64,000 bases of DNA from a candidate division FCPU426 bacterium (GTDB lineage: Bacteria; Oederibacteriota; Muellerivitia; Muellerivitales; Muellerivitaceae): contig CAVTWJ010000013.1 in NCBI GenBank assembly GCA_963738405.1, forward strand, positions 6,445-70,444, written 5' to 3'. Positions 18,875 to 58,658 of the stretch are shown piece by piece; within the stretch, counting starts at the first letter, position 1; each line of letters begins with the position of its first letter. The notes under the pieces were generated by a model that made no database searches, was not told where the DNA came from, and was given only the letters and a program-made list of their open reading frames with translations. Both the position numbers and the translations under genes were made by a program.

Positions 18875-18933
18875 GAAAATTCAACCGGCGAGAGCACCCA
18901 CTGCCTTGCAGTGGGTGCCGCTAAACCATGCCC

Positions 18934-27712: not shown

Positions 27713-28561
27713 ATGAAAAGCTTTCTCCCTATGCGATTTTTTACCTCGTTTTTTTTACTGTTCGCGGCTTCCACCCTCTTAGCTGACCCTGCCTCGGACC
27801 GAGCCGAGGCTCCGCATCTTAAAGTTCGATTGGTGTGTGGCCAAACCGCCCTCATTCCGGGTCAAACTGCCCTCGTTGGCGTCTATTTTCAAATGCAGAA
27901 GGGCTGGCATCTTTATTGGAAAAACCCGGGGGATTCGGGCCTACCGCCCTCAATCAAATGGACCCTTCCACCTGGTTTCAAGGCCGGTGATTTGAAGTGG
28001 CCCATTCCGGAACGTATCAAGATCCCCTCCCTGACCGATTTCGGCTACCTGGATCATTTGCTTTTGATGGCGCCCGTCCATGTTCCGGCAGGACTGAAGG
28101 AAGGAATGGCAGTGACCCTGAAGGCTGAGGCCCGGTGGCTGGTTTGCAATGAGGAATGTATTCCTGGCCAGGCGGTTTTAAACCTGTCCCTGCCGGTTCG
28201 ACAAGAAGTCGGTGAGGCGGCATCCAAGGACCGAGATCTTTTTACCGAGACGAAGGCTCTTTTGGCCAACCCTCTGCCCCTGGATTGGACGTCTAAAGGG
28301 AGTGTTGACCGGGATGGAATGGTACTGCAGTTCAAAACGGGCGCCGTGAAAATTTCAAACGCTGATTTTTTTACCCTTGATCCAAACGTTTTGGATTATG
28401 AAACCGATCCGGTTTTTAAGGCGGGACCATCCTCTTTCAGCCTGAAACTTAAAAAATCGGACCAGCTTCTCCAGATGCCTGCGGAATTGAAGGGTCTTTT
28501 GGTGGTAAATGATTCCAAGGGCCGTAAAAGCGGTTATTGGACGGACATTAAGTTGAAATAA
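27713..28561 (+). CDS. DsbD N-terminal-domain-like thiol:disulfide interchange protein (periplasmic)
   Basis: Signal peptide, then GWHLYWKNPGDSGLPPSIKWTLPPGF...WPIPERI and LVCNEECIPG. Confidence 0.75.
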   Translation: MKSFLPMRFFTSFFLLFAASTLLADPASDRAEAPHLKVRLVCGQTALIPGQTALVGVYFQMQKGWHLYWKNPGDSGLPPSIKWTLPPGFKAGDLKWPIPERIKIPSLTDFGYLDHLLLMAPVHVPAGLKEGMAVTLKAEARWLVCNEECIPGQAVLNLSLPVRQEVGEAASKDRDLFTETKALLANPLPLDWTSKGSVDRDGMVLQFKTGAVKISNADFFTLDPNVLDYETDPVFKAGPSSFSLKLKKSDQLLQMPAELKGLLVVNDSKGRKSGYWTDIKLK

Positions 28562-28583
28562 AAGAGAGCTAAGGAGAAGGACG

Positions 28584-29210
28584 ATGAATAAGAAGATGAG
28601 CTGGCAAGGAATGCTATTGGGCTGTTTCATACTCGTTGCGTCGCAGTCTCAGGCCGTGACGGTGGGCAGCAAGGCGCCGGATTTTACCTGTCAGGACAGC
28701 ATGGGAATCACCCAGAAGCTCTCGAACTACAAAGGCAAATACGTCGTTTTGGAATGGCACAATCAGGACTGTCCCTTCGTGAAAAGCCAATACCAGGGAA
28801 AGATGGAAAAACTCCAGCAGATCTGGACGAAAAAGGGAGTGGTTTGGTTTTCCGTCATTTCCTCGGCACCCGGAGCGGAGGGTTCCGTAACGGCCGATAT
28901 GGCCAACCAGGACGTGAAGAGTCACGGGGCCTTTCCGACCGCCACCCTCATGGACCCTTCTGGAACGGTTGGACATCTCTACGGGGCCAAGACGACGCCC
29001 CATATGTTCGTCATCGATCCCAAAGGCAGGTTAATTTATAACGGTGCCATTGATAACGCGCCCTTGGAAGATGAAATGTCCTCCCAAAACAAGGACGGTC
29101 AGCCCTATGTGAATTATGTGGACCAGGCCCTCACCCAAGCCCAGGGTGGACAAAAGGTCGCTGCCCCATCCACCGCGCCTTATGGTTGTCATGTGAAGTA
29201 CAAAGACTAG
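28584..29210 (+). CDS. Periplasmic thioredoxin-fold redoxin (AhpC/TSA-TlpA-like)
   Basis: Signal peptide, then APDFTCQDSMG...YKGKYVVLEWHNQDCPFVKSQY. Confidence 0.8.
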   Translation: MNKKMSWQGMLLGCFILVASQSQAVTVGSKAPDFTCQDSMGITQKLSNYKGKYVVLEWHNQDCPFVKSQYQGKMEKLQQIWTKKGVVWFSVISSAPGAEGSVTADMANQDVKSHGAFPTATLMDPSGTVGHLYGAKTTPHMFVIDPKGRLIYNGAIDNAPLEDEMSSQNKDGQPYVNYVDQALTQAQGGQKVAAPSTAPYGCHVKYKD

Positions 29211-38804: not shown

Positions 38805-38933
38805 GGCCCTTAAGGAATTGCGGGTAACCTTACATCAAGCGACAAACGATTTCTGAATTTCCAGTTCCTGCCGGAATGGAATAAATAAAAAAATGCTTTC
38901 TGAAACCGATTGAACTCGGTTCGAGGATGTTCA

Positions 38934-41900
38934 ATGGCCGTTACGGGGATGAATGTGGGTGCTTCCGTTGAATCGGCGGGCACTTTCAAAAAAATAAAAT
39001 TATTTTTGATTCGATTGAAAAATGTTTTTTTCAGTGTATGGAAGCTTTTGTGCTTAAAACCTTCCGGCTGTGTTCGACCGCATTTCACTTTCCTCATAAT
39101 TTTGTCGTTTATCTTATTTGCTTCTTCTCATGCGAAGGCCCAAGTTTGGCCCAACGGTTGTTTCACCAGCGGCCTCACTGATTGGTCGTCGGTGGTGAAT
39201 GCAGGTACGAACGCCACTGCGGGAGGGTTGAATGGTGTAGGCGGCACTGGCAATTGCGTCGGCCAGGTTCTCCAGGTAACAAATGCCACGGTCTATCCGG
39301 GGCAAACGGCCCCCGGCTTCGCCCCGAATTCAAACGGATTGCTTCCCATGGTGCCCCCGGGCCAAACGACGGCCGTACAGCTCTTCTCCGGCCATGGCGA
39401 CCAAAACCACAGCGACTGGGCTAGGGTTTGCCAGACAACAACCGTTCCCACCAATGGAAACACCTGTTTGAACTTTCTTCTGGCCGGGGTTTTTGAGAAC
39501 TACCATTTTAATAATCCTGGACAGCGCGCGGATGACGCCTTCATGGAAGTTCGTATTGTTCTGGGGGCGGCCAATTGCAACGCTCAGCCACCCGCAAATC
39601 CGGTCATTTATGACCTTGTGGTTAATTGGATATACCTTAACGGATCGGGTCTTCTCCAGTTGGACGGACTTGAAGGAAACGGGGCCGGAACCTATGGGAC
39701 CGCTACCGCCTGTCAGGTGAACGGCGATAACCCCCCCAATGACCCTTGCGATTGGGGAATCCTTCCCTGGACCCCCTACGAACTGAACCTTTGCCAATAC
39801 GCCGGCCAACAAATCACCATTGAGGTATCGACCTACGATTGCCTGGAGAGCGGACACTATTGCTGGGGTTATTTTGACTGTCCGACCTGGGGCTCTTGTG
39901 CCCCCGCTCCCGTCACTTTAACAAAATCCAACAGTCCAACCGGTCGAGTAAGCGAGGGTCAAACCATCACCTATACTCTGAATTATCAAAACACGAGTTC
40001 AACACAATTCACCGATGGAGTCGTGATCTATGACACGATTCCCACCGGCACGGGCTATGTGACCGACTCCCAAGCCAGCAACCCCTATATGCCGGTGACC
40101 TTTGCCAACACGTCCGGCCGGGGGGTCGTGAGTTTGGTAGGATGGGACATAGGATATTTAAAACCGCTGGCGTCGGGAACCCTTTCCTTTGCTGTGACTG
40201 TTGGCCCCTTGGCTAACGGCGCATGCGCAGAAACGATCGTCAACCAGGCGGCAGAGACCGACGACCTTACTTGTTATTTGGTTCCGAATATATTGACATC
40301 CAATTCCGTTACCAATGTTGTGGGCTATACCTGCACACCAAGCCCCACTAAAACTGCGACGCCGTCACCTACCAACACCATCACCCCGACACCCAGTAAG
40401 ACTCCAACCCTCACCCCCACGAACACTCCAACACCAACTCCTACGAATACCCCAACTAACACACCTACGCCCACGCCCACTTGGACTCCCACGAATACGC
40501 CCACCTATACACCGACTCCAACCCCCACGAACACTCCGACGGAAACACCAACTCCCACCGACACAAAGACTCCTACTAATACCCCTACGAATACTCCAAC
40601 CCCTACCCCAACCAACACTCCGACGAATACTCCAACAGTTACTCTCACCCGCACCCCCACTAATACCTATACCCAAACACCGACTCCTACTCCTTCTAAT
40701 ACTCCTACCGACACGCCGACTCCGACTAATACCCGGACGCCCACCAATACGCCGACCCAAACCCCGACACCCACACCCACCAACACTCCAACGGATACCC
40801 TGACCGCGACTCCAACCCGGACTCCTACCAATACACCCACGGTCACCCATACTCCCGTTTTTACCTACACCCAAACCCCCACGAGTACTCCCACCAACAC
40901 GCCCACTGTGACCTTTACGCCTACTCCCACCAACACACCGACGAATACCCCCACGCCCACCCCAACCTTTACACCCACCCTGACACCCACTCAAACCTTC
41001 ACCCCGACTCCGACCATTACCCCCACGAATACCTTTACCGCCACACCGACCGCAACCCCGACCAATACCCGTACGATCACTTGGACCGCGACGCCTACGG
41101 TAACACCCACCAATACCTTTACGCCGACCTCAACCCTGACGCCCACCAATACTCCGACGACGACACCGACCCGCACTCCCACGAATTCGTCTACTTTTAC
41201 CCCCACGGTAACCCCGACCTATACGGCAACCAACACCTTCACCTGGACCATTACTTGGACGCCAAGCTGGACTCAAACCCCCACCTCAACCCCCACCATG
41301 ACCCCGACCCCCAGCCCCACGCCTGTTTATTTACTCACCAAACAAGCGTCGAAATACACCGCTACCTCCGGTGACCTGGTAGTCTTCCAGCTCAACCTTT
41401 ATCTTCCTAATTCCATACCCGCAGGCGCCGTGATTACCGACCAACTTCCGGTGGATGTCAATTTCAAGGACTTCCAACAGAGCCCCTCCGGCTCTACCGC
41501 CTCCCAAACCGGTTCCACCCTCAGCTGGACCTTGCCCGCCCTTCCAGCCGGGGTCTATCCCTTTACTTACGAGGTGGGAATCGATAATTTCCTTCCCAAT
41601 GGGGAACAGTTGGTGAACACCGCGGTATTTAACTCATCCTCCCTGCCGCCCCTTTCCGCCGCCGCGACGGTTCTCACGGTGGGGCAGTACGTCATCAAGT
41701 TGGGTGTCTATAACGAGGCCGGGGAATTGATTTACAGCTTCCCGGTCACCACCATGACCCAGCCCGTCGGGTCGCTCCAGGCGCCCCTAACCGTCCTCCA
41801 AACGGCAACTGATGTGGTGAAGATCTATTTTGACGGGGCTCTTTTAGGCCAATGGAACGGCAACACTAATTCGGGCACACCCGCCACCAACGGCACCTAT

Positions 41901-42584
41901 CACGTCCAGGCGACCAGTGTTGATTCTCTCGGCACCATCAATACCACCACGCTCCAAGTGGTGGTGAACCGGTCCTACTCCCAAGTTACGGTGGAAGTGT
42001 TCAATGAAGCGGGAGAAGTGGTGCGCCATCTCTACGGCACACTGGCGGCGCCCGTGAGCGTCCAGATGGCGGGGGTCGATCTTTCCGCGGAAAGTTTCAA
42101 CCCCTACGCCCCGCCGACCCAGCCTCAAGACACGGTCCTCACCATCACGGATTCTCAGGGCGCTGCGGTGTCTCTGACTTGGGATGGGCGCAATGACAGC
42201 GGTGTCGTGGTGACCACCGGAAGATACCTTCTTTCGGTTCATTGGAAGGATGGCACCGGCGACGAACAGACCATCAATAAGTACGTGACCTTAATGGACG
42301 CGGGAGGGCCCGCGGGCTTGGTGACCGCTAGGCCGAATATCTTGAGGGGCAGGGGCGCCTCCACCCAAATCGTGGCAAGCCAGCAGGGATTGACCCTAAC
42401 GGTTCAAATCTACGATTTGATGGGGGAGATGGTGGATAAGGTGGAAGGTCCGGCGGGTCAAAGCCAGGCGGTTTGGTCGGCGTTAAAAGCGGCGAGCGGC
42501 CTTTACTTGGCGGTGGTGGATCTGACGGACGCAGCGGGAAATAGGGTTTCCCGGCAGATCCTCAAGTTAGTCGTGACCCATTAA
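38934..42584 (+). CDS. Giant secreted adhesin-like protein: Cys-rich N-domain, DUF11-like repeats, about 330-aa PT repeat, several FlgD-Ig-like C-terminal domains
   Basis: GAGGA SD plus ATG 38934 (the track starts at TTG 38910). Signal-like [19 protein letters not shown], then [11 protein letters not shown] / [10 protein letters not shown]-terminal [16 protein letters not shown]...[20 protein letters not shown], and a final ...[11 protein letters not shown]...[11 protein letters not shown]...LKLVVTH. Confidence 0.85.
40335..41323. repeat. About 1-kb uninterrupted coding (T-P-T-x)n repeat
   Basis: [45 protein letters not shown]... through ...[12 protein letters not shown]. Every alternative frame gives artefact ORFs. 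Confidence 0.9.
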
Positions 42585-48011: not shown

Positions 48012-48142
48012 GGCGGGAAATTTAATCAACCGCCTATCGCCTATTTCTGATCCAATATGATTTGCCGAACATCATTTAGGAAAAAAAGATTAAAACAGAG
48101 TGCGGAGGCAGTGCTTCAACCTCAGGCTGGGTTTCCTCAAGT

Positions 48143-48172
48143 TGAATATATGAATAAATAGGAATATATTCA
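48143..48172. promoter_or_regulatory. Candidate ArsR/SmtB operator (AT-rich inverted repeat)
   Basis: TGAATATAT-12 nt-ATATATTCA, with nested ATATGAATA/TATTCATAT, about 20 bp upstream of the ArsR-family start. Confidence 0.4.
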
Positions 48173-48192
48173 TATAACTACGGGGAGGCCTT

Positions 48193-48525
48193 GTGATTGA
48201 TCCATCCTTTGTTTTCAACATCAAAGCAGACTTTCTGAAAGCCCTGGCCCATCCGGGCAGGCTCAGGATCATTGAGCACCTGAAGCACGGGGAAAAATCG
48301 GTCAACGAAATGTGTAAGGCCTTGGAAATGGAGCAATCCGGCCTTTCCAAGCACCTGTCCGTCCTGAAACAGGCGGGAATCCTGAGTTCCCGCCAGGAAA
48401 AGGTGACCGTGTTCTATTTTGTCAGGGACAAGGGAATCTACGATGTTTTGAAACCCATTACCCTATTCCTGAAAAAAAAGTTTAAAGAGAGCCAGGTCAT
48501 GTTGGATCAATTGGCTAAAAACTAA
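48193..48525 (+). CDS. ArsR/SmtB-family transcriptional regulator
   Basis: FLKALAHPGRLRIIEHLKHGEKSVNEMCKALEMEQSGLSKHLSVLKQAGIL. GTG start with a GGGGAGG SD. Confidence 0.85.
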   Translation: MIDPSFVFNIKADFLKALAHPGRLRIIEHLKHGEKSVNEMCKALEMEQSGLSKHLSVLKQAGILSSRQEKVTVFYFVRDKGIYDVLKPITLFLKKKFKESQVMLDQLAKN

Positions 48526-48630: not shown

Positions 48631-49290
48631 ATGCAGTGGACGGTTAAGGAAGCCAGCGTATTTCTGCAGGTCCCGGAAGACACCCTCTTCGACTGGATCG
48701 ATAAAAGAGCCCTGCCAGCCACCCGTTTCAACGGTCGGTACCATTTCAACCGTTTGAAATTGACGGATTGGGCCCACGAAAACGGGGTACCCCTTCTCAT
48801 TCCCAATGGGGTTGATTTGCCCTCCTTAAGAGAGGCTTTGGAAGTGGGGGGGATTTACGAAAACATCCAGGGCGTTGATAAACCCGAGATCTTCAAAAAT
48901 ATCATGAAGCTTTTAAATATCCCGGAGGAAGAAGACCGGGAACTGGTTTGCCAAATGATCCTTTCCCGGGAGAGGGAAGGTTCCACCGAATTGGGAAACG
49001 GCATCGCCATTCCCCATGCCCGGCACCCGATTTTGCTCCATGTGGCGAAGCCCATGGTAGCCCTTTGCTATTTGAAAAACCCCGTCCCCTTTGGGGAATC
49101 GGATCGGCCCCCGGTTTCCGTCCTTTTCGTGATCCTTTCCCCCAGCATCCGGATGCATTTGCATTTCCTGGAGAGGCTAGGGTACGCGCTCCGGGACGAT
49201 GAGTTTTCCAGCCTGGTGCTATCCCGTGCGCATCCAACGAAAATCATGGACCGGCTGGCGGTTCTGAAGGATCAGTTGGAAAAGCGGTAA
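48631..49290 (+). CDS. HTH (excisionase/MerR-type) - PTS EIIA(Ntr/Fru-type) domain protein
   Basis: N-terminal WTVKEASVFLQVPEDTLFDWIDKRALPA, C-terminal EIIA pattern ...REREGSTELGNGIAIPHAR. Confidence 0.8.
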   Translation: MQWTVKEASVFLQVPEDTLFDWIDKRALPATRFNGRYHFNRLKLTDWAHENGVPLLIPNGVDLPSLREALEVGGIYENIQGVDKPEIFKNIMKLLNIPEEEDRELVCQMILSREREGSTELGNGIAIPHARHPILLHVAKPMVALCYLKNPVPFGESDRPPVSVLFVILSPSIRMHLHFLERLGYALRDDEFSSLVLSRAHPTKIMDRLAVLKDQLEKR

Positions 49291-49363: not shown

Positions 49364-51364
49364 ATGGGTTTGATCCTTGTACTCATCGCGCTTGCGGGCC
49401 TGGGTATCGTTGAAATAGCCGTCCTGCCCTTCAGGCGCCGATCCAACCTCGGACAGTATCTTTCCGCAGGCCTCACCCTCCTTTCCTCCCTCTGCGGGGG
49501 AATTGGTTTGGCGGATTATTATTCCGCGGGTGTTCCGCCCTCCATCGGCATGCCCTGGCAAGTTCCGGGAGGGTCCATCGCCCTGGAGCTCGACGGATTG
49601 ACGGCCTTTTTCCTGATTCCTGTTTTCCTTGTCTCTGGCCTTGGGGCGCTCTTTGGCCTGGAATACTGGAAACAATCGGAGAATCTCGAAAGCGGCAAGG
49701 GCCTCAGGCTCTTTTATGGTCTTCTTTCCCTGGGTATGGGGCTTCTGCTTCTGGCCCGCAACAGCCTTCTTTTCCTGGCGGGTTGGGAAATCATGGCGGT
49801 GGCCGCCTACTTTTTGATCGTGGTGGAGGATAAGGAAAAAAACGTAAGGCAGGCTGGCTGGATCTATTGGGTCTCAGCCCATCTGGGGCTCGCCGCGCTG
49901 ATGGTGATGTTTCTGCTGATGCGAAACCTACTGGGGACCTTCGATTGGTCGGTTCTTCCGCTGGATTCGTCGGTGGATTTCCGCTGCTCTGCCCTGTTTT
50001 TATTGGCCCTTTTCGGATTTGGCTTTAAGGCCGGGCTCATGCCTTTTCATTTCTGGCTTCCCCGGGCCCATTCCAGCGCCCCCAGCCATGTTTCTGGAAT
50101 CATGTCCGGCGTGATGTTGAACATGGGGGTTTACGGGATGATCCGCGTCCTGGGTTACCTTCCGCACCCCCCGATTTGGTGGGGAGTCCTGATGCTGGGG
50201 ATGGGAACTGCCTCCGGTGTCTTGGGAATCCTTCTGGCCATCGCCGAAAGCGATCTGAAGCGCATGCTGGCCTACAGCAGTATCGAAAATATTGGGATCA
50301 TTTTCATGGGTTTGGGTCTCGCCTTGATCGGGCGTTCCTCAGGGAACAGCCTCCTGCTTCAATTGGGGATGATGGCGGCGCTTTTCCATGTGCTCAACCA
50401 TAGCCTGTTCAAGACCGCTCTTTTTTATTGTTCGGGTTCGGTTTTGCACGCTTGCCACACCCGCCGGATGGACCACCTGGGAGGCTTGATCCCGATTCTT
50501 CCCCTCACCGGGTTGGCTTTCGTTATCGCCTCCTGCGCGGCCTGCGGCCTCCCCCCTTTAAACGGGTTCATCGGCGAATGGATTCTCTACCAGGGGTTTT
50601 TCCACCTGTCGGCGGCTGGTTCCATTTTTTACGCCCTCCTGGGAACCCTGGCCATCGGGGGATTGGCCCTGATTGGTACTTTAAGTGTGGTTTGTTTCGT
50701 AAGGGCTTTCGGGACCCTATTTCTGGGATCGCCCCGATTTTCATTGAAACCCCACGATCAAGAAAAGAAAGGGTTCATGATCTTCACCCTGTCCCTGTTG
50801 TTGGGGGGCTGCATGGGACTGGCCTTTCTTCCCGGACGAATCCTTTTTATATTAGGAAAAGCGATGGAAACCTGGGAAAGCGGGAGCGTCCCTTCCTCCC
50901 TCGAAAGCCTGGTTCCCTTGGGGGTTCTGGCCCTGTTGAACCTATCGTTATTGATTGTTTTTGGAGCCGGAGTGGGTTGGTTTGCCCTGAGGAAAAAAAA
51001 GTTCCTTTTCCAACAGCCCCAGGCTTTGGAAACTTGGAGCTGCGGATATAACGGGCCAACTTCCCCCCGGGTGCAATACACGGCTTCCTCCTTCGGGGAA
51101 ATCCTCTCGGGGGTCTACCAGTGGGCCATTCCCTCCCGGCTTCATCAGCCGAACGTGAAGGGGCCTTTACCCCCACCCTCCTGGTTTGCCACCCTTCCTT
51201 TTGACCGCATCTTGGGCGGAATCCTGATTCCTTCCATCCGGTCCTGGGGCGACAGAGTTTCGGTGCTCTTAAAGCTGCAACAGGGCCGAACCTCCATTTA
51301 TCTTCTTTATATTGTGGTTGTTTTCATCGCGGCCCTTTGCTGGGGAAGTTGGAGCCTGCCATGA
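49364..51364 (+). CDS. HyfB/HycC/NuoL-like antiporter-type membrane subunit (copy 1)
   Basis: SD plus ATG 49364. Motifs WEIMAVAAYFLI, GLMPFHFWLPRAHSSAPSHVSGIMSGVMLNMGVYG, LAYSSIENIGII. Confidence 0.85.
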   Translation: MGLILVLIALAGLGIVEIAVLPFRRRSNLGQYLSAGLTLLSSLCGGIGLADYYSAGVPPSIGMPWQVPGGSIALELDGLTAFFLIPVFLVSGLGALFGLEYWKQSENLESGKGLRLFYGLLSLGMGLLLLARNSLLFLAGWEIMAVAAYFLIVVEDKEKNVRQAGWIYWVSAHLGLAALMVMFLLMRNLLGTFDWSVLPLDSSVDFRCSALFLLALFGFGFKAGLMPFHFWLPRAHSSAPSHVSGIMSGVMLNMGVYGMIRVLGYLPHPPIWWGVLMLGMGTASGVLGILLAIAESDLKRMLAYSSIENIGIIFMGLGLALIGRSSGNSLLLQLGMMAALFHVLNHSLFKTALFYCSGSVLHACHTRRMDHLGGLIPILPLTGLAFVIASCAACGLPPLNGFIGEWILYQGFFHLSAAGSIFYALLGTLAIGGLALIGTLSVVCFVRAFGTLFLGSPRFSLKPHDQEKKGFMIFTLSLLLGGCMGLAFLPGRILFILGKAMETWESGSVPSSLESLVPLGVLALLNLSLLIVFGAGVGWFALRKKKFLFQQPQALETWSCGYNGPTSPRVQYTASSFGEILSGVYQWAIPSRLHQPNVKGPLPPPSWFATLPFDRILGGILIPSIRSWGDRVSVLLKLQQGRTSIYLLYIVVVFIAALCWGSWSLP

Positions 51365-53343
51365 CGCCACTCCTTCTTTATACCGCCCTGGGACTGGTGG
51401 CTTTCAGCGGCGTTCCCGGTTTGTTTTTCAACCGTCAATCCATGGGCGGGCAATGGCTTTCCATCCCCTTGTTTTGCGTGGGGTCGGCGGCGGGTTTGAT
51501 CGCGGCCTTCACGTCTTTGATCCATGGCGTGAGTGAAGTTTGGACCCTGCCCCTTACGGTTTGCGGAGGGAATATTTCATTCTTGCTCGACCCCCTCGCC
51601 TCCGTTTTTCTGGCCAGCATCTTCCTTATTTCCGCTTTGGGATCCATCTTTGGCTTGGAATATTGGAAACAGACCCAACATCCGTTTAACGGCGCAAAGC
51701 TGAGGTTTTTTTACGGTTTTCTGGCGGCGGGGATGGCCCTGGTGGTGGTCGCCCATGATTCCATCTTTTTCCTTTTTGCCTGGGAGGTCATGGCCCTCTC
51801 GGCTTTTTTCCTTATCACCACCGAGGATGAAAAAAAGGAAGCCCGGCAGGCCGGATGGCTTTATTTCGTCGCCACCCACTTTTCCACCCTTTTCCTTTTC
51901 GCTTTTTTCGCCTTTCTCCGACAGGCCGAAGGGTCCTTCGAAATCCTTCCCTTGAAGGCGGGGGATATCTCCGCCTCGGGCGCCAGCGGACTTTTCCTCC
52001 TGGCCCTGTTGGCTTTTGGCCTGAAGGCGGGCCTGTTTCCCCTCCATGTTTGGCTGCCTTCCGCCCACGCGAACGCACCCAGCCATGTTTCGGCGATTCT
52101 GTCCGGCGTGTTGCTCAAGGTCGGGGTCTATGGCTTGATGAGGGTGTGCTGGCTTTTCTCGGACCCGCCCCTCTGGTGGGGAACACTCCTGGTCGTGATG
52201 GGAATCCTTTCCTCCGTGTTGGGAGTGGCTTTCGCCCTGGGTCAGCACGATCTCAAAAGGCTGTTGGCTTATCACAGCGTGGAAAACATAGGGATCATCT
52301 TCCTGGGGTTGGGGCTGGCGCTCATCGGCAGGGCCGTGGGGAGGAGCGACCTGGTTTTGCTGGGGATGGCGGGAGCCTTGCTCCACGTTTGGAACCATGG
52401 CCTGTTCAAATCACTTCTTTTCCTCGGGGCGGGGTCGGTGATCCATGCCCTCCACACCCGGGAAATCGACCTTATGGGGGGAGTGGGGAAGAAGATGCCG
52501 CAGACATCCCTGTTGTTCCTGGTGGGTTCGGTGGCCATTTGCGGCCTCCCCCCCTTGAACGGATTCATCAGCGAGTTTCTGATTTTCCTCGGATTTTTCA
52601 GATGCCTGACCCTGTCGGGGATGGAAGGGAACCTGGGATTGTGGATGGGCGCGCCCGCGTTGGCCCTGACGGGGGCCCTGGCTTTGGCCTGTTTCACGAA
52701 GGTTTACGGGGCCGTTTTTCTAGGATCTCCCCGGTCGCCTTCGGTTCCCGAGGCGAGGGAAGGGGGAAGGGCTATTTTATTTCCAATGATTTTGCTCGGA
52801 TTCCTGTGTTTTGGGATCGGCTTGTTTCCCCAAACGGTGGCGCCTCTTTTGGAATCCGCGGTCCGGTGCTGGGAACCCTTGTCGGGTGCAGCCGCCCCCA
52901 CGCTGGCGGGCTGCGCCCCCTTAAACGTTTTTTCGGGCATGGGAATTACCTTTTTGGCTGTTTTGCTCATCGGAATTTATTGGCTCAACCGGAGGCCCAA
53001 AGACGGGAAAGAACCATCCCCTGTTTTAACGTGGGATTGCGGGTATATCCATCCGACCCCTTCCATGCAATACACCGCTTCTTCCTATGCCCAAACCTTG
53101 GTCGATTTTTTCAAATGGGTTTTGGTGCCTGAAAAAAGTTCCATCCAGATCAAAGGGAATTTTCCGAAAAGGATTACTTTCCACAGCCATGTGCCGGAAA
53201 CCGTTTTGGAATGGATCCTGATGCCCCTGGTTCGGGGGGGGCAATGGACACTCAAGTGGTTCAGGTATCTCCAGACTGGTTATCTGCAATCCTACGTTTT
53301 TTATATTTTTCTCACACTGCTGTTTTTTATTCTTTGGAGGTAG
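51361..53343 (+). CDS. HyfB/HyfD/NuoL-like antiporter-type membrane subunit (copy 2)
   Basis: ATGA overlap with copy 1. Motifs WEVMALSAFFLI, GLFPLHVWLPSAHANAPSHVSAILSGVLLKVGVYG, LAYHSVENIGII. Confidence 0.85.
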   Translation: MTPLLLYTALGLVAFSGVPGLFFNRQSMGGQWLSIPLFCVGSAAGLIAAFTSLIHGVSEVWTLPLTVCGGNISFLLDPLASVFLASIFLISALGSIFGLEYWKQTQHPFNGAKLRFFYGFLAAGMALVVVAHDSIFFLFAWEVMALSAFFLITTEDEKKEARQAGWLYFVATHFSTLFLFAFFAFLRQAEGSFEILPLKAGDISASGASGLFLLALLAFGLKAGLFPLHVWLPSAHANAPSHVSAILSGVLLKVGVYGLMRVCWLFSDPPLWWGTLLVVMGILSSVLGVAFALGQHDLKRLLAYHSVENIGIIFLGLGLALIGRAVGRSDLVLLGMAGALLHVWNHGLFKSLLFLGAGSVIHALHTREIDLMGGVGKKMPQTSLLFLVGSVAICGLPPLNGFISEFLIFLGFFRCLTLSGMEGNLGLWMGAPALALTGALALACFTKVYGAVFLGSPRSPSVPEAREGGRAILFPMILLGFLCFGIGLFPQTVAPLLESAVRCWEPLSGAAAPTLAGCAPLNVFSGMGITFLAVLLIGIYWLNRRPKDGKEPSPVLTWDCGYIHPTPSMQYTASSYAQTLVDFFKWVLVPEKSSIQIKGNFPKRITFHSHVPETVLEWILMPLVRGGQWTLKWFRYLQTGYLQSYVFYIFLTLLFFILWR

Positions 53344-53351
53344 TAAATCGG

Positions 53352-54260
53352 ATGATTCTTAATTCTGTGATCCATATTTTCCTGATCCTGTTCCTATCTC
53401 CCATTCTTTTGGGGGTCATCAACAAGACGAAAGCGCTCATCGCTGGGCGGGTGGGGCCGCCGCTTCTCCAGACCTATTTCGATCTGCTGAAACTTTTCAG
53501 GAAAGGAATGGTTTTCAGCCGGACCACCACTTGGGTGTTCCGGGCGGGGCCCCTGGTAGGTTGGGTTTCTGTCTTTGCCGCTTCCTTGATCGTTCCATTG
53601 GGACATCACAGGGCTCCCTTGGCTTTTCAGGGCGACATGATCTTCCTCGTTTATTTATTGGCCTTGGGACGGTTCTTCATGGCTTCCGCCGCTTTGGACA
53701 CGGGATCTTCCTTCGAGGGGATGGGGGCTTCCCGGGAGGTTTCCTTCGCGTCATTCGCCGAACCTGCCTTGTTTTTTGGTTTTCTCGCCCTCGCGAGGCT
53801 GTCCCAGACCTTCAGCCTGTCGGACATGGTTTTGGGTGAAAACTTCAGGGTCGGACCGGAAAAAACAGCGTCCCTGATCCTGATCACCGTCGCTTGGTTT
53901 ATTGTCCTCCTGGCCGAGAACAGCCGCATCCCCTTCGATGATCCCAATACCCATTTGGAATTGACCATGGTCCATGAGGTCATGGTGTTGGACCATAGCG
54001 GGCCCGCCTTGGGGCTCATCCTGCACGGGTCTTCCATGAAACTTCTTTTGATGGGCGCCCTCGTCATGGACGTCGCCCTCCCCTGGGACACCTCCAGCCT
54101 GGCGGATTGGTTCGCCTTCATCCTGGAGATGGGATTGCTGGCCATTCTTATCGGTTTGGTCGAGTCTTTCATCGCCCGGTTGAGGTTGGAGTTCATCCCG
54201 AATCTCTTGGTTTCGGCCTGTCTTTTGTCGGCCTTCGGCTTCATTCTTTTGGTGAGGTGA
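53352..54260 (+). CDS. HyfC/HycD/NuoH-like membrane subunit
   Basis: GGAGG SD plus ATG 53352. Motifs GVINKTKALIAGRVGPPLLQTYFDLLKLFRKG and ENSRIPFDDPNTHLELTMVHEVMVLDHSGP. Confidence 0.9.
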   Translation: MILNSVIHIFLILFLSPILLGVINKTKALIAGRVGPPLLQTYFDLLKLFRKGMVFSRTTTWVFRAGPLVGWVSVFAASLIVPLGHHRAPLAFQGDMIFLVYLLALGRFFMASAALDTGSSFEGMGASREVSFASFAEPALFFGFLALARLSQTFSLSDMVLGENFRVGPEKTASLILITVAWFIVLLAENSRIPFDDPNTHLELTMVHEVMVLDHSGPALGLILHGSSMKLLLMGALVMDVALPWDTSSLADWFAFILEMGLLAILIGLVESFIARLRLEFIPNLLVSACLLSAFGFILLVR

Positions 54261-54264
54261 AAAA

Positions 54265-54906
54265 ATGGAAATCGGGATCAATTCACTCATCGTTGTGGTG
54301 ATCTTGCTGAATTTCCTCGCCTTGGGCTCCAGCCAGATCGGGATCGTCATCCGCCTATCGGCCATCCAGGGGGTCCTGCTGGGGCTCATGCCCCTTCTCA
54401 TGGAGGGGTTTGGGGAAATCCATATGCCGTTGCTGACCTTGGCCATCATCTCCCTCAAGGGTTTTTTGATCCCGTCCCTTCTCTTCAAGGCCATGCGAGA
54501 CGTGAAAATCCGCCGCGAAGTGGAGCCGCTTTTGGGCTTTATCCCCTCGATGCTCTTGGGGGCGCTCGGAACGATCCTTGGGATACTGTTCTCGAATCAC
54601 CTTCCCCTGATCCCTCTTCATAAGGAATACCTGATCCTGCCCGGCTCTTTTTCCACGATCGCCTCTGGGTTCATCATGCTCACCACCCGCCACAAGGCCA
54701 TTACCCAGGTGGTGGGCTTCCTGATCCTTGAGAATGGGATATTCATTTTCGGGCTGCTTCTGCTGGGAACGATGCCTTTTTTGGTGGAGGTCGGCGTTTT
54801 ATTGGATTTGTTCGTCTGTGTGTTCGTCCTCGGAATCATTTTGAACCATATCCAGAAGGCTTTTTCGTCGCTGGACTCGAATAAATTAACTTCCTTAAAG
54901 GAATAA
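54265..54906 (+). CDS. HyfE-like (NuoK-related) membrane subunit
   Basis: A 213-aa all-helical hydrophobic protein in the HyfE position, between the HyfC-like and HyfF-like genes. Confidence 0.75.
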   Translation: MEIGINSLIVVVILLNFLALGSSQIGIVIRLSAIQGVLLGLMPLLMEGFGEIHMPLLTLAIISLKGFLIPSLLFKAMRDVKIRREVEPLLGFIPSMLLGALGTILGILFSNHLPLIPLHKEYLILPGSFSTIASGFIMLTTRHKAITQVVGFLILENGIFIFGLLLLGTMPFLVEVGVLLDLFVCVFVLGIILNHIQKAFSSLDSNKLTSLKE

Positions 54907-54910
54907 CCGG

Positions 54911-56343
54911 ATGCTTTACGTGATTTTGTTCATACCTTTTTTGGGCGGGGCGGCGGCATACCTTTTCCCGTCCAATCGCTTTCGCCCCTTCCTGCTCCCG
55001 GTTTTTTCATTTGCCCATCTTTTATGCGTCTTGAGTGTTTTGGGCCGGAATGATTTGTCGGCCGCGCAGGGTTGGCTGTTCTTGGACCCGCTCGGGAAAT
55101 TGGTTTTGGTGGTCGTCAGTGTTTTGTTTTCTGTTTGTTTCCTTTACGCTCCGGCTTACCTTTGGGTCAGGAGGGAATGGTCGAACCGCGTTTTTTGCAG
55201 TTGCCTTCTTTTCTTGCTGGCGCTTTTATCCCTCGTCACTTTTTCCAGGCAAGTAGGCCTGATGTGGGTGGCCATCGAGGCCACTTCCCTGGTCAGCGCC
55301 CCGCTGATTTATTTCAACCACAACAACCGTTCCATTGAGGCGGCCTGGAAATTCCTCCTGGTCTGCTCCGTGGGGATTGCCCTGGCGCTTTTGGGCTCGT
55401 TCTTTTTAGGCTATTCCGCCCTCGTCGGGGGGGTGTCCTCGACCCTGATGATGGATGATCTGGCTCGGTCGGCGCAGTCGCTTTCCAAGCCTTGGCTTCA
55501 CGCCGCCTTCGCGGCCCTGTTAGTCGGCTATGGGACCAAAATGGGGTTGGCTCCCCTCCACACTTGGAAACCCGACGCCTATGGGGAGTCCCCGGGCCTG
55601 GTGGGGGCCTTGATGGCGGGCGGGATAACCAGTTGCGCCTTCCTGGCGATCTTGCGTGTCACCAAGATTCTTCACGCCGCCGGGGAAGGGTTTTTCGCGG
55701 ACCGGGCCTTGATGGGGCTGGGGCTTTTGTCCATCGCCTTCGGGGCCGTCTTCATGGCCCGGCAAAAGGATTTCAAGAGGATGCTGGCCTATTCGAGCGT
55801 GGAGCACATGGGCATCCTGGTGTTGGGCGTGAGCATGGGCGGGATCGGGATCTTCGGGTCGTTTCTTCACCTCGTCAACAACGCCCTGACCAAGGGGATT
55901 TTGTTCCTCTCCGCGGGAAACATTCATCGCGCCTATAACAGCAAATCGACGGATGATGTTTCGGGGGCGATCCGGAGGCTTCCGGTGTCCGGTTATCTGT
56001 TCCTGGCCGGGTTCATCGCCATCACCGGCTCGCCCCCTTTCGGGCCTTTCTTAAGCGAGTTCACGATTTTGAGATCCATCTTTGAGAACCACCAATACCT
56101 CGTGGGGGGGGGGTTCTCTTTCTGCTGATGGCGGTTTTCATGGGCATGGGAAGCACGGTGCTGGCGGTTTGCTTGGGGGAACCTTCGGACGCGGCGAAGG
56201 CAACTGATTTTCATGACAGTTTTTTCCTGGTCCTGCCGCCCCTGCTGATGATGGGGCTGGTTCTGCTCTTGGGCCTTTATATCCCCGATTCCGTTATGAA
56301 GCTTATTCAGGACGCGGTGAATGATTGGAGTATCCTCTCATGA
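54911..56343 (+). pseudogene. HyfF/NuoN-like antiporter-type subunit interrupted by a frameshift in a G10 tract
   Basis: ORF 54911..56128 ends ...YLVGGGFSFC-stop. ORF 56128..56343 continues as a TM helix if read from the G run (..GGGVLFLLMAVFMGMG..). G10 lies at 56104-56113. Confidence 0.75.
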
Positions 56344-57857
56344 CCCCCATGGAACATTTTGTCATCCTCACCAACGGATCCTCCGTGGACTATGGGCGGA
56401 TTCCCTCACTGGAGTTCGACGATTTCAGGCAATGCATGCGCCACGGCGTAGAGAAGGGTTTTCGTGTGGTTTCCTTTTTCGGGGCATTCCCTGAGGAAGG
56501 GGAGGGAGTGGACCTGATGGCGGTATTCGCCGACGATCCTAACAACCGCCTCCTAGTATTTAAGACCCGCGTTCGGGAAGGAAGTTACCCGTCGCTCACA
56601 CCCGATTGTCCCCAATTGCACCTCTTTGAAAGGGAAATATTCGAGCAGTTCGGGCTTACCCCTAAGGGACATCCCTGGTTGAAGCCTGTCCGGTTTTCCC
56701 GTTCGGGTTGGAATCCAAAAAATCCCGAAGGGATTCCGCCAATTGGTCTGATGGACTTTTACCAGGTCAAGGGAGACGAGGTGCACGAGGTGTCGGTGGG
56801 GCCGGTCCATGCGGGCGTGATCGAGCCCGGCCATTTCCGTTTCCAATGCCACGGTGAAGAGGTTTTTCACCTGGAGATATCGCTTGGGTACCAGCACCGG
56901 GGAGTTGAGGAAGCCCTGATTGCGGGGCCCCGCAAGGATTCCTTTTACCAAATGGAGGCGGCCTCGGGGGACTCTACCATCGCCCATGCCTGGGCCTATT
57001 GCCAAAACCTGGAAAGCTTGAGGGGCGCCAAGATCACCGCCCACGACTGGATGGTGAGGGCCATCGCCCTGGAACTGGAACGCCTAGCCAACCATACGGG
57101 GGACCTGGGCGCCCTGGCGGGGGATGTGGGGTTTCTTCCCACCGCATCCTATTGCGGAAGGATTCGGGGGGATTTCCTCAACATGACCGCCGCCTTATGC
57201 GGAAGCCGGTTTGGACGAAGCCTGCTGAAGGTGGGGGGCAACCGCTTTCAGTTGGATATTCCCCAAGCAGGCGGCCTGTTGAAAAGATTGGCCGAAGCGG
57301 AAAGGGATGTCACTCAAGCGGTGGATCTCCTGTGGGAATCGGCCTCGGTGGTGGATCGGTTTGACGATACGGGCGCCGTCAGTCAGGACCAGGCCAGGGA
57401 ATTGGGGTGGGTGGGCCCCACCGCCCGAGCCTGCGGCGTGGAAACGGACGTGAGGTTCAATCACCCCTTTGGCCCCTACCGGTTCGTGGTGGTTCCGGTT
57501 TCCACGGCCCATGCCGGGGACGTGCATTCCCGGGCCTTTGTTCGCTGGCTGGAGATCAAGAGGTCCATCCAGTTCGTCAGGGAAAGATTGATGAACCTGC
57601 CTTCCCCCGAAAAGGAAAAACCGGCTGGGCCCGTAGCGGCTGGCCGCTTGGCAGTTTCAATGACCGAGGGCTGGAGGGGGGAAGTCTGCCATGTGGCCTT
57701 GACGGGGAAGGACGGACAGTTCATCCGCTACAAGATCACCGACCCTTCCTTCCACAACTGGAGCGCTCTCGCCCTTTCCATGCGCAACCAGGCAATTTCC
57801 GATTTCCCCGTTTGCAACAAGAGTTTCAACCTTTCTTATTGCGGGCACGACCTATGA
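56340..57857 (+). CDS. HycE/HyfG-like NuoC-NuoD fusion large subunit lacking the Ni-Fe ligand cysteines (Ehr-type)
   Basis: ATGA overlap at 56340-56343. Conserved GPVHAGVIEPGHFRF and LGYQHRG. SGDSTIAH sits where RxCGxCxxxH is expected, and SFNLSYCGHDL where DPCxxCxxR is expected. No CxxC occurs anywhere in the protein. Confidence 0.85.
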   Translation: MTPMEHFVILTNGSSVDYGRIPSLEFDDFRQCMRHGVEKGFRVVSFFGAFPEEGEGVDLMAVFADDPNNRLLVFKTRVREGSYPSLTPDCPQLHLFEREIFEQFGLTPKGHPWLKPVRFSRSGWNPKNPEGIPPIGLMDFYQVKGDEVHEVSVGPVHAGVIEPGHFRFQCHGEEVFHLEISLGYQHRGVEEALIAGPRKDSFYQMEAASGDSTIAHAWAYCQNLESLRGAKITAHDWMVRAIALELERLANHTGDLGALAGDVGFLPTASYCGRIRGDFLNMTAALCGSRFGRSLLKVGGNRFQLDIPQAGGLLKRLAEAERDVTQAVDLLWESASVVDRFDDTGAVSQDQARELGWVGPTARACGVETDVRFNHPFGPYRFVVVPVSTAHAGDVHSRAFVRWLEIKRSIQFVRERLMNLPSPEKEKPAGPVAAGRLAVSMTEGWRGEVCHVALTGKDGQFIRYKITDPSFHNWSALALSMRNQAISDFPVCNKSFNLSYCGHDL

Positions 57858-57878
57858 GGCCCTTCATGGAGGCGAGAA

Positions 57879-58658
57879 ATGTATAGGATCTTGAAGGCCA
57901 GATTCCAGCAGGGCCACCGGACGATTGAATTTCCCAAAGGTCCGTCCCCCTCCATGCCGGACCACTTCCGGGGGCTCCCGGTTATTGATACGGCCCAATG
58001 CCCGCAAGGGTGCCGGGAATGCGTGGAGGCCTGCCCGGTGGATGCCATTTCGATGAAGGGCGAGAAACCTCAAATCGACCTGGGGCGATGCCTTTTTTGC
58101 ACCGACTGCATGGAAGCCTGCCCGCAAGGGGCGATTGAATATGGCGGGGATTACCGACTGGCTTCCCGCACCAGGGAAGGCCTGAAGGTCGCCCCGAATA
58201 TGGAAATAAAGTTGGCGCAGGCACTGGACGAGAAACTTCTCCGTCTCTTCGGCCGTTCACTCAAATTAAGGCAGGTTTCCGCCGGAGGCTGCAACGCTTG
58301 CGAGGCGGATGTGAACGTGTTGGGCACGGTAGGTTGGGACCTAGGACGATTCGGAATCCAGATGGTGGCCTCGCCCCGGCACGCGGACGGGCTCCTGGTC
58401 ACCGGCTGCGTCACCGAAAACATGAAGGTGGCGCTGGAAAAAACCTATGCGGCGGTCGCGCCTCCCAAAATCGTCATTGCGGTGGGGGCTTGTGCTATTT
58501 CAGGAGGGCCTTTTCTAAAAAATTCCCAGCAGTTGGGAGGCGCGGGATCCACGGTGCCGGTAGATCTTTACATACCAGGGTGTCCGCCCCATCCCTTGAC
58601 GATTTTAGACGGTTTATTAAGGCTTTTGGGCCGGTTGGAAGGCCGTAAGGGCCCATAG
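57879..58658 (+). CDS. Fusion of a 2x[4Fe-4S] ferredoxin (HycF/HyfH/NuoI-like) with the NuoB/HycG-like small subunit
   Basis: CPQGCRECVEACP and CLFCTDCMEACP, then GGCNACE, GACAISGG and PGCPPHP (the four Cys of the proximal cluster). Confidence 0.85.
   Translation: MYRILKARFQQGHRTIEFPKGPSPSMPDHFRGLPVIDTAQCPQGCRECVEACPVDAISMKGEKPQIDLGRCLFCTDCMEACPQGAIEYGGDYRLASRTREGLKVAPNMEIKLAQALDEKLLRLFGRSLKLRQVSAGGCNACEADVNVLGTVGWDLGRFGIQMVASPRHADGLLVTGCVTENMKVALEKTYAAVAPPKIVIAVGACAISGGPFLKNSQQLGGAGSTVPVDLYIPGCPPHPLTILDGLLRLLGRLEGRKGP

Follow-up and report, generated by a model that had tools for sequence, protein, structure and literature searches.

A seven-gene cluster in the 64-kb window (the whole stretch of DNA analysed here) is supported by sequence comparison as an Ehr (energy-converting-hydrogenase-related) complex orthologous to Geobacter ehrA1-A2-B-C-D-L-S. 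Ehr evolved out of the group 4 [NiFe] hydrogenases of Hyf/Hyc type. Together with a dedicated HTH/PtsN-like regulator, the complex probably acts as a ferredoxin-fed, ion-translocating oxidoreductase, for which we infer donor, acceptor, ion and direction. The window adds no new class; Ehr has already been described since 2005-2013, and besides the founding report, Pereira 2011 and Marreiros 2013 are the other standard references on it.

Organization of the ehr locus

Seven co-directional ORFs on the + strand fill positions 49364-58658. ORF calls and Pfam/NCBIfam domains agree with the original prediction of a seven-gene Hyf/Hyc-type membrane cluster at this position. The prediction was right about the seven genes but missed a frameshift in the HyfF-like gene and an eighth gene upstream. 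Subunits are named as in G. sulfurreducens, including ehrA-2 and ehrB (PMC7894505, PMC13194489). The features are:

48631..49290, + strand: regulator, HTH_17 plus PtsN-like EIIA (Pfam, NCBIfam and PDB PtsN match)
49364..51364, + strand: EhrA1, HyfB-like antiporter-like subunit, 666 aa (Proton_antipo_M, E 1.3e-50)
51361..53343, + strand: EhrA2, second HyfB-like antiporter-like subunit, 660 aa (Proton_antipo_M, E 1e-56)
53352..54260, + strand: EhrB, HycD/HyfC/NuoH-like membrane subunit, 302 aa (Pfam NADHdh, E 1.2e-35)
54265..54906, + strand: EhrC, HyfE-like small membrane subunit, 213 aa (NCBIfam NF008556, E 5.8e-18)
54911..56343, + strand: EhrD, HyfF-like antiporter-like subunit, frameshifted, about 476 aa if repaired (HyfF, 223 bits)
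56104..56113, + strand: G10 homopolymer with the 1-nt deletion that splits ehrD (DNA alignment with the relative L081)
56340..57857, + strand: EhrL, large subunit, 505 aa, NuoC-like plus NuoD/HycE-like fusion (Complex1_30kDa and Complex1_49kDa)
57879..58658, + strand: EhrS, small subunit, 259 aa, HycF/NuoI-like plus HycG/NuoB-like fusion (Fer4 families and Oxidored_q6)

The start of ehrA2 overlaps the stop of ehrA1 (ATGA), and the two proteins are 41.8% identical. The most likely ehrB start is 53352; the L081 protein has 303 aa. The EhrC score for NF008556 (hydrogenase 4 membrane subunit) falls below the curated cut-off. Promoter and terminator scans gave counts at or below the shuffled expectation.

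The genes are ordered B-like, B-like, C-like, E-like, F-like, G-like and an H+I fusion. An order mirroring the E. coli hyfB-I core had been proposed, with the second antiporter gene as HyfB/D-like, but the match is not exact. Because this gene precedes the HyfC-like gene, whereas hyf of E. coli runs B,C,D,E,F,G,H,I, it is a HyfB paralogue and not a HyfD equivalent.

The ehrD ORF ends at 56128, and another frame carries on to a TGA at 56341-56343 that overlaps the ATG of ehrL. Where the G10 run is aligned with the closest relative, L081, the window reads GTGGGGGGGGGGTTC and the relative GTGGGGGGCGTTTTTC, one nucleotide more. The L081 orthologue is intact (477 aa). Thus a 1-nt deletion in the G10 run at 56104-56113 interrupts ehrD, and the window copy may not be expressed intact. 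All genes at the locus are under purifying selection. dN/dS is 0.07-0.18 over the cluster, 0.11 in the ehrD segment past the frameshift and 0.13 in the regulator gene, which argues that the genes are not decaying.

Loss of the metal site in EhrL

To carry a Ni-Fe cofactor, HycE uses C241, C244, C531 and C534. In three independent alignments these residues correspond to S209, S212, S499 and G502 of EhrL, so that no Ni-Fe cysteine is present. A cysteine at any one of the four positions occurs in at most 2/200 EhrL homologues. The expectation of a large subunit lacking the metal-ligand cysteines is therefore borne out after correct alignment, and the sequence comparison supports the conclusion that canonical binding of a Ni-Fe cofactor is precluded in EhrL.

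The lost ligands have been replaced by motifs that are nearly invariant. EhrL has E-A-A-S-G-D-S-T-I-A-H where HycE-type proteins have RVCGICGFAH, and N-L-S-Y-C-G-H-D-L-stop stands in for DPCYSCTDR. D211, S499 and G502 are invariant across 200 sequences, and the family-invariant replacement set comprises G-D-T/S and NKSFNLSY-C-G-x-D-L. Three cysteines specific to the Ehr family (C450, C492 and C501) lie near the former ligand motifs and are 91-97% conserved; C501 is found in 191/200 homologues and C450 in 183/200. A paralogous cluster, in locus L016, has Ser at position 501. Second-sphere residues of the hydrogenase are retained, namely the EPGHFR-loop Glu, the RG-motif Arg and two His. The replacement motifs are conserved like a catalytic site, which together with purifying selection argues against the view of Ehr as a dead hydrogenase.

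The best PDB sequence match of EhrL is HycE (151.7 bits, against 113.5 for MbhL and 44.9 for MbsL, 6u8y_L), and the best fold match of its AlphaFold model is 7z0s_E (TM 0.77). The monomer model is usable for fold assignment and has pLDDT <50 at 117-184 and 486-505, the segments that form the former site. The C-terminus of EhrL coincides exactly with the HycE cleavage point, hence the C-terminal extension is absent. When EhrL was aligned by sequence with Nqo4 of T. thermophilus and NuoCD of E. coli, no equivalent of the complex I quinone ligands His38/Tyr87 (Nqo4) was seen.

Selenocysteine at the ligand positions was ruled out, as there is no in-frame TGA there. The TGA of ehrL lies 21 nt before ehrS in the same frame, and read-through was considered. 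It was rejected because the stop codon varies across loci (TGA in 44, TAA in 23 and TAG in 14) and the ehrL and ehrS frames agree in only 32/73 pairs.

Membrane arm and iron-sulfur subunits

Each subunit was compared with E. coli Hyf, Hyc and Nuo proteins by BLASTP, and in every case the Hyf/Hyc score exceeded the Nuo score. EhrL scored 167 bits with HycE and 88 with NuoCD. EhrA1 and EhrA2 matched HyfB at 295 and 299 bits, respectively, and NuoL/M at 93-124 bits. EhrB scored 116 bits with HycD against 40 with NuoH. The remaining matches were HyfE for EhrC (47 bits), HyfF for EhrD (223 bits), and HyfI, HycG and HycF for EhrS (113, 112 and 62 bits).

The key residues, a Glu in TM5, a Lys in TM7 and a Glu in TM12, occur in 3/3 antiporter-like subunits: Glu142, Lys222 and Glu405 in EhrA1, Glu142, Lys222, Lys253 and Glu405 in EhrA2, and Glu123, Lys210 and Glu383 in EhrD. 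The three antiporter-like subunits that had been predicted are two HyfB-like proteins and one HyfF-like protein. The acidic loop of EhrB, R-x-P-x-DDP-x-THLELTM-x-HE, is invariant in the family. EhrS keeps 12/12 cluster cysteines, eight of which align with HycF/HyfH/NuoI. The other four align with HycG/HyfI, and of their NuoB counterparts two sit side by side in a CC motif. Judged from these residues, the three [4Fe-4S] clusters and the three antiporter-like subunits look intact.

Genes missing from the neighbourhood

Pfam analysis of the larger ORFs and tblastn with E. coli proteins found no hyp, hycI, hycH, hyfJ, formate dehydrogenase or nuoA/E/F/G/J/K gene in the 64-kb window. Tblastn with HyfA/HycB over the window matched only the ferredoxin domain of EhrS. 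The window had been described as lacking HyfA, formate dehydrogenase, the HycI protease and hyp genes, and these searches agree. No hyp or maturation gene and no molybdopterin protein was found in the window or conserved in 80 related loci. A complex I fragment was ruled out, with Hyf/Hyc scoring above Nuo for every subunit and NuoA/E/F/G/J/K absent from the window. The original prediction had named two outcomes that would speak against it, a complex I fragment and a group 4 hydrogenase with ligands intact; both were tested and neither was found.

All-against-all clustering of 5412 ORFs from the 80 loci identified no conserved electron-input partner. The regulator is the sole conserved neighbour, and the next unrelated ORF clusters occur in at most 9/80 loci. 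The ehr operon is never linked to a donor module, which favours a soluble carrier.

A PtsN-like regulator accompanies ehr

The gene upstream of ehrA1 encodes an N-terminal excisionase/MerR-type HTH (HTH_17) fused to PTS_EIIA_2 (Pfam). NCBIfam PtsN hits its EIIA domain with E 1e-15, and in matches to PtsN chains of the PDB (E 7e-12) the His motif aligns; the phospho-acceptor motif GNGIAIPH is retained. The regulator gene adjoins ehr in 46/80 genome loci. Among metagenome loci retrieved by a search with the regulator protein, ehrA lies directly downstream in 64/65 that could be evaluated. In many loci the stop codon of the regulator gene overlaps the start of ehrA, and in some Geobacter-type loci the regulator and ehrA2 are read divergently. 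The HTH-EIIA regulator is a near-obligate operon partner of ehr.

An open-access literature search found no mention of a link between Ehr and PtsN. E. coli PtsN regulates K+ transporters and also binds YcgO, a K+/H+ antiporter (PMC11808508). In cultivable hosts such as Geobacter, Geomonas and Geothrix, the regulator gives a practical starting point for finding the condition that induces ehr.

Relation to known complexes

Relatives of the cluster occur in at least 592 species genomes from Planctomycetota, Verrucomicrobiota, Acidobacteriota, Desulfuromonadia, Spirochaetota, Gemmatimonadota and other groups. Among the matches listed in the species-genome scan the best are at most 60% identical to the window's EhrL, and the closest match found (87% identical) lies on a metagenome contig. 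No record of the window's own EhrL was found. The assignment to Ehr stands, as EhrL is 54-58% identical to that of Geobacter-type loci whose genes agree with the window's in kind and order, the loci compared being those of Geobacter sp., Geomonas limicola and Pelobacter, and not that of G. sulfurreducens PCA. These loci have the same Cys-less motifs and the same HTH-EIIA gene, and Geomonas limicola has the R-A-A-B-C-D-L-S layout of the window. The G. sulfurreducens Ehr (EhrA-1, A-2, B, C, D, L and S; GSU0739-0745) comprises the same seven subunit types; unlike the Geobacter Ehr, the window copy has a frameshifted ehrD. G. sulfurreducens Ehr is the founding member according to PMC13194489, which cites Coppi 2005.

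The statement that no substrate or acceptor has been established for Ehr agrees with PMC10284858, PMC6349859 and PMC7894505. In an open-access search the literature on Ehr function went no further than "function unknown", an FDH-Ehr proposed for Margulisbacteria, and the up-regulation of Geobacter Ehr on formate.

Every Ehr subunit has its best match in E. coli hydrogenase 4 (HyfB-I) or hydrogenase 3/FHL (HycB-G; PDB 7Z0S). Ehr has the same large-subunit fold as these enzymes, the same EPGHFR loop and RG-x3-H motif, and the same cluster ligands in the small subunit. In contrast, Ehr of the window lacks the Ni-Fe cysteines, the C-terminal extension, HycI, HyfA/HycB, FdhF and hyp; its HycF-like and HycG-like proteins are fused, and two HyfB paralogues take the place of HyfB and HyfD. 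P. furiosus MBH (6CFW), MBS/MBX (6U8Y) and Ehr are all modular and do without a dedicated dehydrogenase module: each combines a 2x[4Fe-4S] entry of ferredoxin type with a proximal cluster, a large subunit and pumps that are Mrp-like. The membrane arm is Hyf-type in the window (HyfB/C/E/F-like), whereas that of MBH/MBS is Mrp-type. MBS has lost the Ni-Fe site and is still a respiratory enzyme, but its sulfane sulfur substrate is without support for Ehr here. Complex I/NDH-1 (NuoB, CD, H, I, L, M and N) has a homologous core with conserved N2 ligands, and its antiporter-like subunits repeat the pattern of Glu in TM5, Lys in TM7 and Glu/Lys in TM12. Unlike complex I, Ehr of the window is without NuoA/J/K/E/F/G and the His38/Tyr87 quinone ligands.

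Proposed function and alternatives

By analogy with electron transfer from ferredoxin to MbhN in MBH, a soluble low-potential carrier such as ferredoxin would give electrons to the HycF-like domain of EhrS. From there electrons may pass through the N2-like cluster to an acceptor in a remodelled pocket at the EhrL/EhrS/EhrB interface. This redox step would drive translocation of H+ or Na+ via EhrB/C and EhrA1/A2/D, and the opposite direction may be used as well. A PTS(Ntr)-type relay, working through the linked regulator, would control expression and perhaps activity by way of its phosphorylation state. A bolder version is less probable. Ehr may be a working respiratory enzyme of an undescribed kind, in which the invariant Asp211, Ser499, His216 and His451 with the nearly invariant Cys450, Cys492 and Cys501 form a non-Ni-Fe, non-quinone centre in the former hydrogenase site, fed by ferredoxin, coupled to three ion pumps and switched by the PtsN-like phosphorelay protein of its operon. 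If true, membrane energisation would be tied directly to the carbon/nitrogen or potassium status of the cell.

Ehr might instead be a ferredoxin:quinone oxidoreductase, like cyanobacterial NDH-1 or 11-subunit complex I, that reduces menaquinone at a non-canonical site. Three antiporter-like subunits and a NuoH-like subunit equal the pump count of complex I, the invariant Asp211 and His216 are located where complex I has the quinone-binding Tyr, and many hosts belong to groups that contain menaquinone (Geobacter, Planctomycetota, Verrucomicrobiota, Acidobacteriota and Gemmatimonadota). We nevertheless consider this fairly unlikely, given the absence from EhrL of equivalents of Nqo4 His38/Tyr87, the closer relation of all subunits to Hyf/Hyc than to Nuo, the absence of NuoA, NuoJ and NuoK, and the report that Margulisbacteria with Ehr, possibly of another subgroup, lack quinone biosynthesis (PMC6349859). 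The complex could also be a redox-gated or PTS-controlled cation/proton antiporter for K+/Na+/pH homeostasis, whose Fe-S chain senses the ferredoxin pool. The acceptor site of Ehr is not recognisable, its sole conserved partner is PtsN-like, the regulator stop and ehrA start often overlap, and E. coli PtsN acts on K+ transport (PMC11808508). However, strict retention of 12/12 cluster ligands and of the hydrogenase proton-gate residues seems more than a sensor needs, and such a role is distinctly unlikely. Reduction of polysulfide or a thiol-disulfide by electrons from the proximal cluster, aided by C450, C492 and C501, is improbable. PMC7684303 provides the precedent of MBS, which derives from a hydrogenase, has no Ni-Fe and reduces sulfane sulfur, and the Ehr-specific cysteines are well conserved (91-97%) near the former ligand motifs. 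Against this, EhrL resembles MbsL only weakly (44.9 bits, compared with 151.7 for HycE), 5-9% of members and also the L016 paralogue have other residues in place of the cysteines, and clustering of the 80 loci linked no sulfur-metabolism gene to the operon.

Decay into a non-functional relic of a hydrogenase operon would fit the loss of catalytic ligands, the frameshift in the window's ehrD and the regard of Geobacter Ehr as non-functional in PMC13194489. It is very improbable in view of a dN/dS of 0.07-0.18 in every gene, the post-frameshift segment included, replacement motifs that are invariant across phyla, relatives in at least 592 species, and the detection of all Ehr subunits as proteins in Geobacter (PMC7894505). 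A rise of Geobacter Ehr proteins on formate (PMC7894505) has been weighed as a sign that the locus encodes a true group 4 [NiFe] hydrogenase, or a formate hydrogenlyase of the Hyf/FHL-2 type, with ligands overlooked or replaced by selenocysteine. The closest solved relative is indeed HycE of FHL, and annotations name a Ni,Fe-hydrogenase III large subunit. Nonetheless this reading is extremely improbable: the four ligand positions have no Cys in the window and at most two exceptions per position among 200 homologues, no in-frame TGA falls on them, the ehrL stop codon varies, and the window is without hyp, hycI, HycB/HyfA and FdhF.

The substrate of Ehr, which we take as a ferredoxin-fed, ion-translocating oxidoreductase, bears on the evolution from hydrogenases to complex I. 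Homologues are auto-annotated as "Ni,Fe-hydrogenase III large subunit" or "NADH-quinone oxidoreductase subunit C". Routine mis-annotation of Ehr inflates predictions of H2 metabolism in metagenomes.

Gene content and descent of the ehr cluster

The interval 49364-58658 is filled by seven ORFs that all run in the same direction on the + strand. Assignments with Pfam and NCBIfam, together with the Pfam assignment of the gene that precedes them, were as follows.

Genes of the ehr region, in order
48631-49290, regulator, directly upstream of ehrA1: excisionase/MerR-type HTH (HTH_17) fused to a PtsN-like EIIA domain
ehrA1 and ehrA2, +: two Proton_antipo_M proteins of 660-666 aa, best model 'hydrogenase 4 subunit B'
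ehrB, +, start most likely 53352: NuoH/HyfC-like
ehrC, +: HyfE-like
ehrD, 54911-56343, +: HyfF-like, in two frames
ehrL, +: large subunit with Complex1_30kDa and Complex1_49kDa domains
ehrS, +: 259 aa, 2x[4Fe-4S] ferredoxin domain fused to a NuoB-type domain

All Ehr subunits score well under the curated NCBIfam thresholds and so fall outside the ordinary membership of the named equivalogs. E. coli K-12 proteins were used as the reference set for comparison with Hyf, Hyc and Nuo. For every subunit the top score was with Hyf or Hyc, and Nuo scores were clearly lower. EhrA1 and EhrA2 gave 295 and 299 bits with HyfB, EhrB 116 bits with HycD versus 40 with NuoH, EhrD 223 bits with HyfF, EhrL 167 bits with HycE versus 88 with NuoCD, and EhrS 113, 112 and 62 bits with HyfI, HycG and HycF, respectively. 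This comparison shows that Ehr descends from Hyf/Hyc. A complex I fragment, one of the two opposing outcomes named in the original prediction, is contradicted by these scores and by the absence of NuoA/E/F/G/J/K from the window, and is effectively excluded.

The ORFs, domain assignments and E. coli scores confirm the predicted seven-gene Hyf/Hyc-type membrane cluster. The predicted order (HyfB, HyfB/D, C, E, F, large subunit, fusion) was right as to gene types, but the second gene is a HyfB paralogue. Nor does the order mirror E. coli hyfB-I as proposed. E. coli hyf runs B, C, D, E, F, G, H, I. In the window, by contrast, the HyfC-like gene comes after a pair of HyfB paralogues that share 42% identity, and the HyfH and HyfI equivalents are one fused protein.

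The ehrD ORF stops at 56128 and its remainder lies in another frame, ending at a TGA (56341-56343) that overlaps the ehrL ATG. The closest relative, locus L081 on a metagenome contig, has a large subunit 87% identical to EhrL and an intact ehrD of 477 aa. In the alignment with L081, one nucleotide is missing from the G10 homopolymer of ehrD (56104-56113). Against L081, dN/dS is 0.07-0.18 for all genes, indicating that the family is under purifying selection, and a dead relic is effectively excluded. With a dN/dS of 0.11 still seen in the ehrD segment downstream of the frameshift, the choice is between a homopolymer sequencing error and a slip that happened very recently. The ehrL gene ends in TGA, and the ehrS ATG follows in the same frame 21 nt further with no stop between (57855-57881). 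A conserved selenocysteine or read-through at this point was rejected since the stop codon and frame vary across 73 related loci.

Relatives of the cluster

Homologues of EhrL number in the thousands. Identity is 58-87% throughout the best 120, and most of these carry the annotation 'Ni,Fe-hydrogenase III large subunit' or 'NADH-quinone oxidoreductase subunit C'. Scanning one genome for each species yielded at least 592 confirmed relatives. Hosts among the matches listed include Geobacter, Geomonas limicola, Pelobacter, Geothrix paludis, Planctomycetota, Verrucomicrobiota, Leptospiraceae, Gemmatimonadota, Omnitrophota and others. The 80 loci retained from these relatives share a conserved core, A(-A)-B-C-D-L-S. 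The layout in Geomonas limicola is exactly that of the window, and the Geobacter Ehr (EhrA-1/-2, B, C, D, L, S) is the same cluster (PMC7894505, PMC13194489). The window cluster belongs to the already known Ehr class and is not a new kind of system, which supports the original Ehr interpretation.

The papers found concur that Ehr is without CxxC motifs and of unknown function (PMC10284858, PMC6349859, PMC7894505, PMC13194489), in keeping with the earlier statement that no substrate or acceptor is established. Nitrospira Ehr has been placed beside group 4f, as a Cys-less sister clade (PMC10284858), and an FDH-Ehr complex was speculated for Margulisbacteria (PMC6349859). In Geobacter, all Ehr subunits were more abundant on formate (PMC7894505), and the complex has also been assumed non-functional (PMC13194489). 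The present analysis adds evidence for a constrained replacement site, the lack of a linked donor module, an operon-linked HTH and PtsN-like regulator, and the ehrD frameshift.

The former Ni-Fe site of EhrL

EhrL was aligned by HMMER with the large subunit of the FHL structure (7z0s_E; 151.7 bits, E 2.9e-43). S209 and S212 align to HycE C241 and C244, and the C-terminal SFNLSY aligns to SLDPCY. MAFFT alignment with E. coli HycE, HyfG and NuoCD agrees, pairing HycE RVCGICGFAH with E-A-A-S-G-D-S-T-I-A-H and DPCYSCTDR with N-L-S-Y-C-G-H-D-L-stop. Since the latter motif runs into the stop, EhrL ends exactly at the HycE processing point with no extension. At the positions equivalent to the complex I quinone ligands (Nqo4 His38 and Tyr87) neither His nor Tyr was found in the alignments. 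Conservation was examined in 200 homologues, comprising 120 database proteins and the large subunits from the 80 genome loci.

Residues at selected EhrL positions (n=200)
209, ligand position: A 166, S 28, C 2
212, ligand position: T 156, S 30, A 12
499, ligand position: S 200
502, ligand position: G 200
D211: 200/200
H216: 197/200
H451: 199/200
C170: 195/200
C272: 192/200
C287: 193/200
C450: 183/200
C492: 191/200
C501: 191/200

These alignments bear out the predicted lack of metal-ligand cysteines. Judged from sequence, both the Ni-Fe and the quinone ligands are lost, and a true hydrogenase is effectively excluded. EhrL retains other residues of true hydrogenases, namely Glu and His in the EPGHFR loop, the (P/W)RG Arg and the His after it. 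The conservation pattern is that of a site remodelled under constraint rather than eroded.

Among known structures, the AlphaFold model of EhrL (pTM 0.80) is most like FHL HycE (TM 0.77, E 4e-22), with E. coli NuoCD and MbhL next. Model confidence drops sharply in the site-lining segments, where geometry is not readable. By sequence and fold search, no solved structure is closer to EhrL than FHL. In a Geobacteraceae MAG locus (L016) the first cluster is followed directly downstream by a second, paralogous Ehr-like one (13260-20578), whose large subunit is also without Ni-Fe cysteines (RVSGDTTVAH ... NKSFNASYSGHDL) and has Ser at the position of the main-family Cys501.

Electron wire and membrane arm

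In EhrS, all four Cys of the N2-like proximal cluster are present (GGCNACE, GACAISGG, PGCPP), as are both four-Cys motifs of its HycF/NuoI-like domain, showing by motif an intact three-cluster wire. EhrA1, EhrA2 and EhrD retain the TM5 Glu, TM7 Lys and TM12 Glu as well as the central Lys/His of NuoL/M/N and HyfB/F. All three antiporter-like subunits are apparently competent. EhrB retains the GMG-x-SRE motif. Its acidic cytoplasmic loop, R-x-P-x-DDP-x-THLELTM-x-HE, is invariant within the family and unlike the corresponding loop of HycD.

The linked regulator

The regulator aligns to solved PtsN proteins through the phospho-acceptor motif, here GNGIAIPH. In a set of 14 aligned orthologues every sequence has the phospho-acceptor His, and its conservation is at least 90% among 47. 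Of the 80 genome loci, many of them cut short on the upstream side, 46 gave a tblastn match to the gene. It usually lies directly 5' of ehrA, often with a 4-nt overlap; elsewhere it lies between two ehrA genes or, in some Geobacter-type loci, is divergent with ehrA2. L081 has two tandem copies. When the ORFs of the 80 loci were all clustered against one another, the regulator emerged as the only conserved neighbour; the remaining large clusters were antisense shadows of core genes.

In the reverse test, a metagenome scan with the regulator alignment gave 80 loci, of which 65 extend 700 bp or more downstream and were counted. An EhrA-like gene lies directly downstream of the regulator in 64/65; the other locus has EhrD/L/S. 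The HTH-EIIA gene is a near-obligate operon partner of Ehr. No mention of an Ehr-PtsN link was found in the literature searched. PtsN controls K+ transporters and binds the K+/H+ antiporter YcgO (PMC11808508).

Proposed mechanism

ORF clustering in the 80 loci revealed no dehydrogenase or polyferredoxin linked to the operon. Because no such module is linked and the HycF-like end domain is exposed as in MBH, the electron donor would most likely be a soluble low-potential carrier such as ferredoxin. Electrons would travel via the N2-like cluster to an acceptor seated in the remodelled pocket, whose reduction would drive ion translocation. The complex may also work in reverse. Expression or activity would track a PTS(Ntr)-type phosphorelay.

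Rival readings have a quinone or a sulfur or disulfide compound as the acceptor, or take Ehr to be a non-catalytic, redox-gated antiporter.

Other genes in the window

Pfam scans covered the other window ORFs of at least 150 aa and several shorter ones near the cluster, and detected no hyp, hycI, molybdopterin or Nuo genes. tblastn of the window with E. coli HycI, HycH, HypA, HypB, HyfJ and NuoA/E/F/G/J/K gave no match, and with HycB and HyfA the sole match was the EhrS ferredoxin domain. The predicted absence of HyfA, HycI, hyp and formate dehydrogenase from the window therefore holds.

An ArsR/SmtB-type regulator gene (48193-48525) lies within the region 48142-48525. The inverted repeat TATATGAATA...TATTCATATA ahead of it overlaps a promoter-like site (48142-48170) and looks like a candidate autoregulatory operator. 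This site may head a transcript running on into the HTH-EIIA regulator and ehr. The ArsR/SmtB-type gene is present in only 1/80 Ehr loci and is not conserved there.

By Pfam, other window genes encode transposase fragments, TPR proteins, M16 peptidases and a GGDEF protein. Integrase core (rve) ORFs near the window start (2574-3641, -; 5409-6251, +) are probably insertion-sequence remnants. A chemotaxis cluster (12293-18399, -) comprises a response regulator, an MCP, a CheA-like kinase with a CheW domain and a CheX-like phosphatase. A DsbD N-terminal-domain protein gene adjoins an AhpC/TSA-type redoxin gene (27713-29210), forming a thiol-redox pair. The sole Pfam match of a 1224-aa ORF (38910-42584) is a FlgD Ig-like domain. 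GC skew is strongly negative (-0.39) at 40001-42000, unlike the remainder of the window.
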